Source: Minisyncoccota bacterium (GTDB lineage: Bacteria; Patescibacteriota; Minisyncoccia; Minisyncoccales; Minisyncoccaceae). From it: a stretch of 64,000 nt of DNA. A program made the translations under genes and the position numbers. Location: the NCBI GenBank assembly GCA_041663645.1, contig JBAYMH010000002.1, positions 16,515 to 80,514 on the forward strand. Direction: 5' to 3'. Within the stretch, counting starts at the first letter, position 1. Every line of letters begins with the position of its first letter. This document shows positions 50,245-51,455 of the stretch, piece after piece. The notes under the pieces are model-generated. The model made no database searches. It had not been told where the DNA came from and saw nothing but the letters and a program-made list of their open reading frames with translations.

Positions 50245-51455
50245 GGTCCAACGTTTCTATCACTCCCACTTGCCCGCCCATGGAGGGACCTGATTGGAAA
50301 TCTTTCCTGTCTCTTTGAGGGAAGGCGGGAATGTCGCAACACGACGAGGTCCGACCTGAGGTCGGACCTCGCAGCATGCTTTGCCATTTTATGTTCTAAT
50401 ATTTATCCTTTATGTCCGAGGCTCGACTTTTGAGATCCGACTTCGAAGATTTTACTAATTTGAAATGTATGTTATTATAAAAATGTAATTTTAATTAGAG
50501 GCTAAAAGTCCTGCTACTCAGCAGGATTTTTATTTTTAAAAATTAAAAATGAAAAGAATTTACTTTGAAAATGGTAAAATTTATCATATTTATAATAGAG
50601 GAGTGGACAAGAGGGTTATTTTTAATAATGAGGATGACTATTCAAGATTCTTGAATTATCTTAATGATTTTAATAATTTAAAACTAATAGATAGGGAAAA
50701 TGAAATTGTAAATAAGATAGCTTCAGAAGAAAGAGAGCCAGAAGATGGAAAAATTCAAAACAGCGAGAAGAATATTTTGGTTGATATTTTAACTTTTTGT
50801 TTAATGCCTAATCATTTTCATTTACTTTTGTGACAAAAAAGAGATGGAGGGATTTCAAAATTCATGCAAAGAATAACTACTGGGCACACTATGAACTTCA
50901 ATTTTAATGAAAAAAGATCGGGAACATTGTTTCAGGGAAGATTTAAAGCGATTTGTGTTGATGAGCAAGAATATCTCGACTATTTAATTTTTTATATTCA
51001 TTTTAATCCTTTAGTATTAATTGATGGGGGATGGAATGGAGATAAGCATGATGCGTTAAATTTTTTAGATGGCTATGAGTGGTCAAGTCATCTTGATTAT
51101 TTAAATATCGATAAATTAAAAGAATATTTTTCTTTAATAGACGAAAATTTTTTGTTGGAAAATTTTAAAAATAGTGCTGAGTATAAAGAAAAAATATCTG
51201 AATGGCTAGAAATAATTAAAGAAAAAAATAAATACAAAAAATTCACAAACAAAGCCATTGATTTTGAAGAGTAGGTAGAATCCTTGTGAGGTCCGATTTC
51301 TCCAACGCTTCTATCGCTCCCGCTTGTCCGCCCATGGAGGGACCTGATTGGAAATCTTTCCTGTCTCTTTGAGGGAAGGCGGGAATGTCGCAACACGACG
51401 AGGTCCGACCTCAGGTCGGACCTCGCAGCACGATTCCTCATTTATGTTCTAATAT
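50245..51455 (+). mobile_element. RAYT/IS200-like unit: Y1 (HUH) transposase gene flanked by about 160-nt direct repeats, each containing the family C palindrome
   Basis: The left repeat (50245-50402) and right repeat (51289-51455) share a ~100-nt core. The core is identical except for the central base of the palindrome (G at left, C at right). Confidence 0.7.
50549..51274 (+). pseudogene. REP-associated tyrosine transposase (RAYT)/IS200-like Y1 transposase interrupted by one in-frame TGA
   Basis: ORFs 50549..50833 and 50864..51274 are in the same frame (offset 315 nt). The HUH motif is LMPNHFHLLL, then TGA at 50831-50833, then QKRDGGISKFMQRITTGHTMNFN...GTLFQGRFKA...YIHFNP (catalytic Tyr motif). 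Confidence 0.75.

Follow-up and report, generated by a model that had tools for sequence, protein, structure and literature searches.

Research on systems in which a repetitive extragenic palindrome (REP) is paired with a REP-associated tyrosine transposase (RAYT), such as those of E. coli and Pseudomonas, has been confined almost entirely to Proteobacteria and a handful of other phyla. A locus in the DNA of a Minisyncoccota bacterium, an ultra-small organism, raises the question of whether such a pairing is also found in Patescibacteria. The stretch that was analysed (contig JBAYMH010000002.1, positions 16,515 to 80,514 of the forward strand; 64,000 nt, hereafter the window) contains a Y1/HUH transposase gene that lies between two direct repeats of approximately 160 nt, each of which carries a palindrome, and a first-pass annotation made from the sequence alone had proposed a REP/RAYT-type arrangement. 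Is this gene the partner of the palindrome, or is it an insertion sequence, a gene for a host protein or a chance neighbour? With a probability of about 0.7, we favour a REPtron-like unit of a Patescibacteria (Paceibacterota-like) genome, in which cognate palindromic modules stand on both sides of a RAYT-class Y1/HUH gene.

Composite direct repeats flank the Y1/HUH gene

Translation of the plus-strand frame at 50549-51274 (241 codons) confirmed both of the catalytic motifs that had been predicted, NHFHLLL at codons 88-94 (HUH at 50813-50821) and YIHFNP at codons 149-154 (50993-51010). On either side of the gene were direct repeats of approximately 158 nt, located at 50247-50405 and 51301-51458 when one 1-nt insertion or deletion was allowed; the ungapped part (50247-50389 compared with 51301-51443) was 93% identical. 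The long flanking copies that had been annotated proved to be real direct repeats, except that the right copy starts at 51301 and not at 51289. Positions 51288-51300 of the plus strand are occupied by a separate degenerate palindrome (GAGGTCCGATTTC), 14 nt past the Y1 stop codon, at the place where the right module of a related genome (contig L001, described below) begins.

Within the repeats, 84 identical nt run up to the centre of a 25-nt palindrome, and 18 further identical bases come after this centre. The central base of the palindrome (G at 50358, C at 51412) was the sole difference inside it, as had been claimed for the core of the repeats, and the other differences between the copies lay near both ends. 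The description of the hairpin centre as inverted between the two flanks was correct for this locus and is amended here to the extent that opposite centres were common across the wider protein family.

Each repeat was found to be a composite of a private 98-nt segment, designated R100, and a dispersed module. The module consists of a palindrome doublet (two 13-mers head to head) and a conserved 32-nt tail (...CAGCACGATTYNTCATTTTATGTTCTAATAT), and a degenerate third palindrome is usually found a few bases beyond the tail. All of the elements at the locus are on the plus strand. The left R100, which is GC-rich (50247-50344), differed from the right copy (51301-51398) by four mismatches, all within the first 27 nt. 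The left module (50345-50402) comprises a palindrome at 50346-50370, with G at its centre, and a 32-nt tail that ends in TTTATGTTCTAATAT; the L001 orthologue is flanked by the same module. Degenerate palindromes follow this tail at 50414-50444 and include GAGATCCGACTTC at 50432-50444, where the aligned place in L001 reads GAGGTCG...GAGGTCGGACCTC. With the tail as a spacer, the left module and its degenerate copies are REPIN-like, and in L001 the same tail forms the spacer between two inverted 13-mers, which is also a REPIN-like structure. The right module (51399-51458) contains the palindrome at 51400-51424, centred on C, and a tail with a 1-nt deletion; no palindrome was found further downstream.

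The 160-nt repeats are a local composite, in which the private 98-nt segment, duplicated once, is joined to the dispersed module. No blastn match to R100 was obtained in any other locus compared, and no third copy was found. Its depth was approximately twice the single-copy depth, as judged from contig depth in run X1, a landfill metagenome that contained 97% of the sampled words of a queried 2.8-kb stretch and was taken as the source. The 98-nt segment, with or without the palindrome, could instead represent two copies of a gene for a small structured RNA: it is far more G+C-rich than the window (approximately 33% GC), its predicted plus-strand fold, which relies on G-U pairs, has a z-score of -2.8, and a weakly similar hairpin was seen by eye at the syntenic place in L001. 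However, this z-score includes the perfect palindrome, the segment has no homologue in the other loci, and the repeats matched no Rfam family at gathering or permissive thresholds, giving only terminator-like chance matches. Since only two copies exist, no covariation test was possible. We regard an RNA gene as a scarcely credible explanation of the repeats.

The palindrome is dispersed and the gene is single-copy

Six loci of the window, all of them intergenic, carried the 25-nt palindrome (GAGGTCCGACCTSAGGTCGGACCTC), in each case on the plus strand, compared with an expected number of 0.00, and the 11-mer AGGTCSGACCT was found as 13 exact copies and one copy with one mismatch where 0.19 were expected. 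Away from the gene, complete modules with palindrome and tail were located at 30792-30850, beside a tRNA-Ser gene, and at 42738-42796; both are intergenic, and they are 100% identical. The palindrome scan also detected a palindrome doublet with a degenerate tail at 8391-8415, between two minus-strand genes. A solo module at 55519-55606 consists of three overlapping 13-mers (55521-55557), a tail and a degenerate palindrome (55594-55606). The occurrence of the palindrome away from the gene, which had been part of the original proposal, was thus observed in the window, and it was also observed in metagenome contigs.

Beside the first of these modules, the region 30623-30850 contains tRNA-Ser(GGA) with a terminator hairpin behind it. 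Next comes an inverted copy, 21 nt long, of the 3' end of the tRNA (30753-30773, corresponding to 30687-30707), which abuts the palindrome module at 30792. The inverted copy may be a remnant of an integration or a rearrangement at the tRNA.

There was one Y1 copy in the 64-kb window, and its depth in X1 (52.8, compared with 46-48 for the flanks) was that of a single-copy gene, in agreement with the copy number that had been predicted. When metagenomes were scanned for pairs of palindromes no more than 30 nt apart, at least 120 contigs were identified; among the matches listed, a Y1 gene was present in the fetched stretch of 6 contigs and absent from that of 114. The exact 25-mer had zero matches in the species genomes of the Genome Taxonomy Database (GTDB), and this lineage is therefore not represented there. 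One contig, L124 (a 172-kb record), contained two modules, one of which was 94% identical to that of the window over 69 nt. L124 probably comes from the same genome as the window or a very close one, because it shares its flanks with loose ends seen in X1. The cumulative GC skew had its minimum near 10-11 kb of the window, no origin marker gene was identified in the window, and six palindrome loci are too few for an argument from replication strand about their orientation.

The protein belongs to the RAYT class

Assignment to the Y1 transposases was borne out by a Pfam Y1_Tnp match above the cut-off (PF01797; E = 2e-9, 38 bits compared with a cut-off of 23). Among 1908 matches, the nearest relatives were proteins of 230-245 aa from Paceibacterota and other Patescibacteria, with 78% identity for the top match. 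At least 578 related loci were found in the GTDB species genomes, and most of the best 80 were labelled Patescibacteria or one of its lineages. The residues H89, H91 and Y149 were invariant in all 44 aligned family members. REP_Tyr_transpos was the only NCBIfam model that these members matched (44/44, individual scores unlisted), and therefore none of them matches an IS200-type model.

The tyrosine motif YIHFNP has the form Y-x3-NP. This form is the signature of class 2, the RAYTs, and IS200 has Y-x3-Q (PMC6006769, Table 1). Comparison by eye with the same table identified the motif set of subclass 2.1 in the window protein, namely NHFH, LFQGRF, YIHFNP (YIHLNP in many relatives) and WSS, in a protein of 241 aa. 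Subclass 2.1 (Quentin et al. 2018, PMC6006769) is equivalent to the Group 1 RAYTs (Bertels et al. 2017, PMC5581495) and for the most part to the TIRYTs (Di Nocera et al. 2013, PMC3733652). Its motifs are NH[YF]H, FQ, Y[IV]HLNP and, proximally, SS, and its members have a low copy number and are 238 aa long at the median (PMC6006769, Table 1). Judged by its motifs, the protein fits TnpA_Y1 subclass 2.1 (Group 1 RAYT/TIRYT) and is not a canonical RAYT.

An AlphaFold model of an intact orthologue (P0001) had a predicted local distance difference test score (pLDDT) of 82. Its best match in the Protein Data Bank (PDB), as determined by Foldseek, was 4er8 (E = 3.7e-6), the E. coli TnpA_REP bound to a REP hairpin, followed by the TnpA proteins of IS608 and ISDra2 (2vjv and 2xqc, which with 4er8 were the top matches). 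At the sequence level, a phmmer search of the PDB gave no match, and the family profile gave a weak match to ISDra2 TnpA around the HUH motif only (E = 0.013). The C-terminal tail was predicted to be helical in the P0001 model, and no Pfam match to the HTH-like C-terminal domains of subclass 2.1 (Bac_DnaA_C, HTH_23 or HTH_28) was found in the 44 members at E values up to 1; the C-terminal tails of group 2.1.2 are heterogeneous (PMC6006769).

The gene has left a slot that is conserved in close relatives

Four related genomes (contig pairs L001/L002, L003/L004, L005/L006 and L007/L008), whose Y1 proteins are 78, 70, 59 and 56% identical to that of the window, respectively, share one slot for the Y1 gene. 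This slot lies after a gene for a protein of approximately 1130 aa and, in the contigs that reach far enough, before one for a protein of approximately 491 aa. The corresponding slot of the window (55455-55800) contains one module, the solo module described above, and no Y1 gene. In a three-way alignment, the left flank of this slot corresponded to the left flank in L001 and the right flank to the right flank in L001. The Y1 gene of the window was located 5 kb upstream of the slot, between the gene for a 1335-aa protein and a Com-type zinc-ribbon gene. The block that comprises module, leader and gene (50358-51273) was 80.4% identical to L001 9813-10725, and the neighbouring orthologues were 81-83% identical. 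Since the divergence of the block was like that of its neighbours and the slot was common to the relatives, the Y1 gene was inherited vertically; it has been relocated at least once. The aligned sequences indicate that an exchange between the two direct modules removed it from the slot; its present site is close by, again beside modules.

Each of these genomes has a palindrome of its own, which was present both before and after the Y1 gene and is GAGGTCCGACCTC in the window, L001 and L007, GAGGTTCAACCTC in L003/L004 and GAGGCCCGGCCTC in L005/L006. The symmetry of the palindrome was kept despite the change in sequence between close relatives. Directly 3' of the Y1 gene, three of the genomes had tandem 16-nt units with one palindrome each: eight units in L007 (10749-10873), at least eight in L005 (10737-10861, where the contig ends inside the array) and three in L003 (8648-8695).

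L001 also contains a second, divergent Y1 paralogue (5474-6205; 243 aa), which has 68% DNA identity to the window gene and lies between the zinc-ribbon gene and the gene for a 1129-aa protein. There is no gene at this place in the window.

The leader of the window gene contains a promoter-like site (TTTACT-16-TATTAT, TG-extended; 50451-50478, plus strand), which is a consensus match only, with 7 such sites found compared with 7.2 expected; the part of the leader that carries it is conserved with L001. It is followed on the plus strand by a terminator-like hairpin and T-run at 50503-50532, 16 nt before the Y1 ATG. The position of this hairpin was kept in L001, L003, L005 and L007 and its stems differed, being AGTCCTGC/GCAGGACT in L001 and L003 and AAGCCCC/GGGCTT in L005 and L007. 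A terminator-like hairpin is also present upstream of the ATG in IS200, and by analogy the hairpin at 50503-50532 may insulate or attenuate the Y1 gene.

This resemblance is one of several that could lead the locus to be read as an autonomous insertion sequence of the IS200/IS605 type, with the repeats as its left and right ends and with single-stranded transposition. The gene block has moved at least once, the Y1_Tnp fold is like that of IS608 and ISDra2 TnpA, and the presence of a hairpin at either end, with both on one strand, agrees with the IS200/IS605 geometry. However, one complete module was left at the old slot, and precise IS200/IS605 excision would have removed both ends. The depth was that of a single copy, one slot was kept in four relatives of 56-78% protein identity, and the L001 paralogue had only 68% DNA identity to the window gene, where an insertion sequence of this type has several near-identical copies per genome. 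Other loci carry the flanking module by itself, and no tnpB-sized open reading frame (ORF) adjoins the Y1 gene among the ORFs of the window. The protein itself has Y-x3-NP and not Y-x3-Q and is 241 aa and not approximately 150 aa in length (PMC6006769, Table 1), and no family member matched an NCBIfam IS200 model. An insertion sequence of this type is therefore improbable, and the REPtron-like unit is preferred.

Palindromes flank related genes across the phylum

The association between gene and palindrome was surveyed in 76 GTDB loci with enough flanking sequence, which encode proteins of 33-49% identity, come from species-representative genomes and are nearly all labelled Patescibacteria. 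Each locus was scored for a non-trivial word that recurs on both sides of the Y1 gene, with 400 nt of flank considered on each side, and 171 genes of similar size from the same loci were used as controls. A common word of at least 13 nt was found at 43 of the 76 Y1 loci and at 5 of the 171 control genes (57% compared with 2.9%, an approximately 20-fold difference); with words of at least 17 nt, the numbers were 35/76 and 1/171.

In the 35 loci that were examined, the usual form of the word was a palindrome with one unpaired base at its centre, or else a hairpin whose loop comprises a few bases, and its usual positions were 18-60 nt upstream of the start codon and 0-30 nt downstream of the stop codon. 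The two copies had opposite centres or loops (that is, they were inverted copies) in about half of the cases, and the window behaves likewise as regards the one base at the centre. Further copies of the palindrome were present within 5 kb at no fewer than 14 of the 35 loci.

These figures bear on the possibility that the association is incidental, which would make the palindromes generic intergenic elements such as terminators or mRNA stabilizers and the 160-nt repeat a chance segmental duplication around an unrelated pseudogene. It is true that every copy in the window is located between genes, a short distance past a true terminator, and that the variable region upstream of the locus holds several other hairpin families. 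An incidental association is nevertheless strongly disfavoured by the excess of flanking words at Y1 genes over controls. In addition, the palindrome changes with the gene lineage, and the palindromes are not followed by T-runs. We consider this explanation to be very improbable.

At 19 loci (among L010-L085), the palindrome that flanks the gene was also found in frame inside an intact Y1 ORF, for example in L022 (1028-1729), L029 (3586-4245) and L011 (5001-5669). The main hot spots for these copies were codons ~52-68, which form a low-confidence loop of the model, and codons ~150-160, just after the Y motif; at two loci the palindrome was near the 3' end. The Y1 gene of the window contains no in-frame palindrome insert.

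Such positions could also suit a domesticated host protein that binds hairpins or palindromes and acts in replication, repair or regulation, with the palindromes as operators for autoregulation and with their spread and relocation due to RecA-dependent recombination. In distant relatives, the palindromes lie within tens of bases of the start codon, next to the stop codon and in frame inside the gene; position is conserved, copy number is low, and perfect two-fold symmetry suits a dimer on double-stranded DNA. It has been suggested that subclasses other than 1.1 may have different roles in single-strand DNA processing (PMC6006769). Autoregulation, however, requires neither palindromes far from the gene nor arrays in which 3 to 8 or more units stand in tandem, both of which were found, and retained nuclease chemistry is argued for by the HUH motif and the catalytic tyrosine because they are invariant in 44/44 members. 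A domesticated protein is accordingly judged to be rather unlikely.

The window copy is disrupted by a stop codon

An in-frame TGA was found at codon 95 of the Y1 gene (50831-50833), directly after NHFHLLL, so that translation with table 11 gives two ORFs, one of 94 aa and one of 136 aa. The corresponding residue in homologues is R or K. In X1, the T at 50831 was fixed (0 of approximately 100 depth units differed); in runs X2 and X4, which represent related groundwater populations, this position was C, giving CGA (Arg). Fixation in the source, together with CGA in related populations, indicates that the Y1 copy is a recent pseudogene that arose through a CGA to TGA nonsense change. Low-level read-through in the UGA-C context may be possible; nothing calls for it. 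Since the copy is disrupted, the link between palindrome and enzyme is historical in this genome, unless there is another copy elsewhere.

An alternative genetic code in which TGA encodes Gly or Trp (as in Gracilibacteria and SR1) was ruled out, as TGA ends real genes. Within long ORFs of the window, in-frame TGAs occurred only at the very ends, with two exceptions, the Y1 gene and a minus-strand frame at 8456-9895. The latter is a stop-to-stop frame of 480 codons with mid-frame TGAs at codons 195 and 219, and may represent a second pseudogene or two neighbouring genes.

A proposed mechanism and the evidence that weighs against it

By analogy with E. coli TnpA_REP and IS608 TnpA, the intact enzyme would be a nuclease-ligase for single-stranded DNA that would bind the palindrome hairpin on such DNA, cut beside the hairpin through a 5'-phosphotyrosine link (Y149) and rejoin the cut end to another hairpin. 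Rejoining would spread the modules, and DNA between two direct modules would be excised or inserted.

Several observations weigh against the reading of the locus as a REPtron-like unit. The window copy is broken, so that activity here would be past or would come from elsewhere. The scores with the NCBIfam REP_Tyr_transpos model (NF047646) were 44.4 bits for the window protein and 46.3 bits for P0001, below the cut-off of 80. The hairpins lack GT[AG]G, the 5' guide tetranucleotide of canonical REPs, which are imperfect hairpins; their flanks read ACG-AGGTCCGACCT, TTGG-AGGTCC or TTCG-AGGCCC. As the repeats are perfect palindromes with one central base, their symmetry fits a double-stranded site bound by a dimer equally well. 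The number of copies appears modest, with approximately 18 palindrome doublets and approximately 8 tail-bearing modules in the source assembly as estimated from depth in X1.

The history of the locus is subject to similar reservations. Relocation and solo modules are also possible through ordinary homologous recombination between repeats, and a simple exchange of module for module does not account for the doubling of the private 98-nt segment. Excision junctions were absent from the contigs of three runs, in which rare variants are dropped. The joints listed in these runs had 20-54 matching letters on the shorter side and were AT-rich, and none of them fits a module-to-module deletion.

When these points are set beside the survey and the comparison of relatives, the REP/RAYT-type arrangement put forward in the first-pass annotation is supported as regards the pairing of gene and palindrome, in the four close relatives and across the phylum. 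It requires correction in that the copy is disrupted and relocated, the protein is not a canonical RAYT and the repeat is a composite. The in-frame TGA, the composite nature of the repeats and the different slot conserved in four relatives were missing from that annotation.

Comparison with known systems

The locus is of a known kind, that of the REPtrons and TIRtrons. What is new is the host phylum, the finding that an enzyme like those of subclass 2.1 is paired with dispersed palindromes, the tandem arrays and perfect hairpins without a tag, and the in-frame copies. No paper linking Patescibacteria with REP/RAYT systems was found in an incomplete full-text collection, and Patescibacteria are not named as a host in the text of the three surveys cited here (PMC6006769, PMC5581495 and PMC3733652).

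The closest likeness in motifs and length is to subclass 2.1, with 241 aa here compared with the median of 238 aa and with a low copy number in both. Neither automatic nor manual searches gave REP-like sequences for that subclass (PMC6006769), in contrast to the family studied here, most members of which are flanked by palindromes. The 16-mers that flank Group 1 genes are moderately repeated, at approximately 12 per replicon (PMC5581495), a number that resembles the depth estimate obtained here. Among the terminal repeats of TIRYTs, some are self-complementary and make up small families (PMC3733652). The motif GGGGWSAS, which many of the long terminal inverted repeats in this group contain, was not found within 25 kb of the Y1 gene, the flanks of which are short, dispersed palindromes.

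Like the E. coli REPtron (TnpA_REP/RayT, subclass 2.2, 4er8), the locus consists of a single-copy Y1/HUH gene bracketed by palindromes that are also dispersed between genes; the E. coli enzyme was the best structural match, and the inverted palindrome doublets are REPIN- or BIME-like. Unlike TnpA_REP, which has 165 aa, the protein has 241 aa with a C-terminal extension, and sequence identity is approximately 14%. The hairpins differ from E. coli REPs in that they are perfect and have no GTAG foot, bulges or sizeable loop. Furthermore, the flanking copies are often direct or in 16-nt tandem and not alternating, and they number tens and not hundreds.

A cognate palindrome in frame inside an unbroken transposase gene is also a feature of subclass 2.4 (Cyanobacteria and Bacteroidetes), to which in-frame REPs were said to be unique (PMC6006769). 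That subclass differs in having WQ, YIxNNP and 194 aa, and the hot spots here are before the HUH motif and after the Y motif, not generally between them. The IS200/IS605 elements (IS608, ISDra2 and IS200) share the Y1_Tnp fold, hairpin recognition, same-strand ends and the single-strand chemistry proposed here. They are unlike the present unit in having Y-x3-Q, approximately 150 aa, multiple copies, often tnpB, and ends that leave with the element; here the module stays behind, and the Y1 gene has one copy and keeps its syntenic place in the relatives. Elements of that family insert 3' of a fixed target of 4-5 nt, and for the unit studied here no shared target tetranucleotide could be identified.

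Subclass 2.1/Group 1 is the largest RAYT-like group and had no known DNA partner; in Patescibacteria an enzyme of this type has a clear hairpin partner that co-varies with it. The 13-nt palindrome and the 241-aa protein provide a concrete substrate for biochemistry, and the natural series of enzyme-hairpin pairs would serve studies of specificity. The window itself is a more modest case, a relocated and freshly inactivated Y1 copy with repeats left behind.

Cassettes between modules

In several contigs, genes other than the Y1 gene were bracketed by direct modules. L007 contained a two-gene cassette (4371-5915; a 189-aa gene and an AbiEii-domain gene) between nearly identical direct modules of approximately 75 nt, each of which has two palindromes and a 39-nt spacer. 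Direct modules also bracketed a gene for a 139-aa membrane-like protein in L001 and a gene for a 50-aa membrane peptide in L124. These bracketed cassettes are suggestive of module-guided movement and are not proof of it.

In L124 547-987, two paralogous genes encode small membrane peptides of 56 and 50 aa. Behind each of them lie a terminator and a copy of a direct repeat, approximately 75-85 nt long, that ends in the palindrome doublet.

A broader reading is possible, to which we give rather less than even odds: Patescibacteria would have a phylum-wide, previously undescribed REPtron-like system based on an enzyme like those of subclass 2.1, which is believed to have no REPs. The perfect-palindrome hairpins of this enzyme would bracket its gene, lie in frame inside it and make up REPIN-like modules, and these modules would serve as portable sites of single-strand recombination through which whole cassettes move from one intergenic hot spot to another. 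The Y1 gene itself, the AbiE-type two-gene cassette and the genes for small membrane peptides would be such cassettes. Such a system may explain the reshuffling of cassettes at intergenic hot spots of small, streamlined genomes.

Other features near the locus

The locus is framed by genes for paralogous large secreted proteins, at 45998-50005 (1335 aa) and 52050-55454 (1134 aa). Orthologues of the 1335-aa protein had a weak or faint match to PG_binding_1, and the 1134-aa protein contains a long Asn run. The intergenic space after the gene for the 1335-aa protein is an insertion hot spot in all of the relatives.

A second hairpin family, of the form TTGTCATT-stem-loop-stem-AATCT (for example TTGTCATTCCCGCGAAGGCGGGAATCT), was found at 41026, 41536, 45561, 45687 and 50044-50102. 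The member downstream of the gene for the 1335-aa protein is syntenic in L001 and L005, and similar hairpins are present there in L007. Beside this family is a 77-nt direct repeat, at 40961-41037 and 41448-41524, the two copies of which are 100% identical and 487 nt apart.

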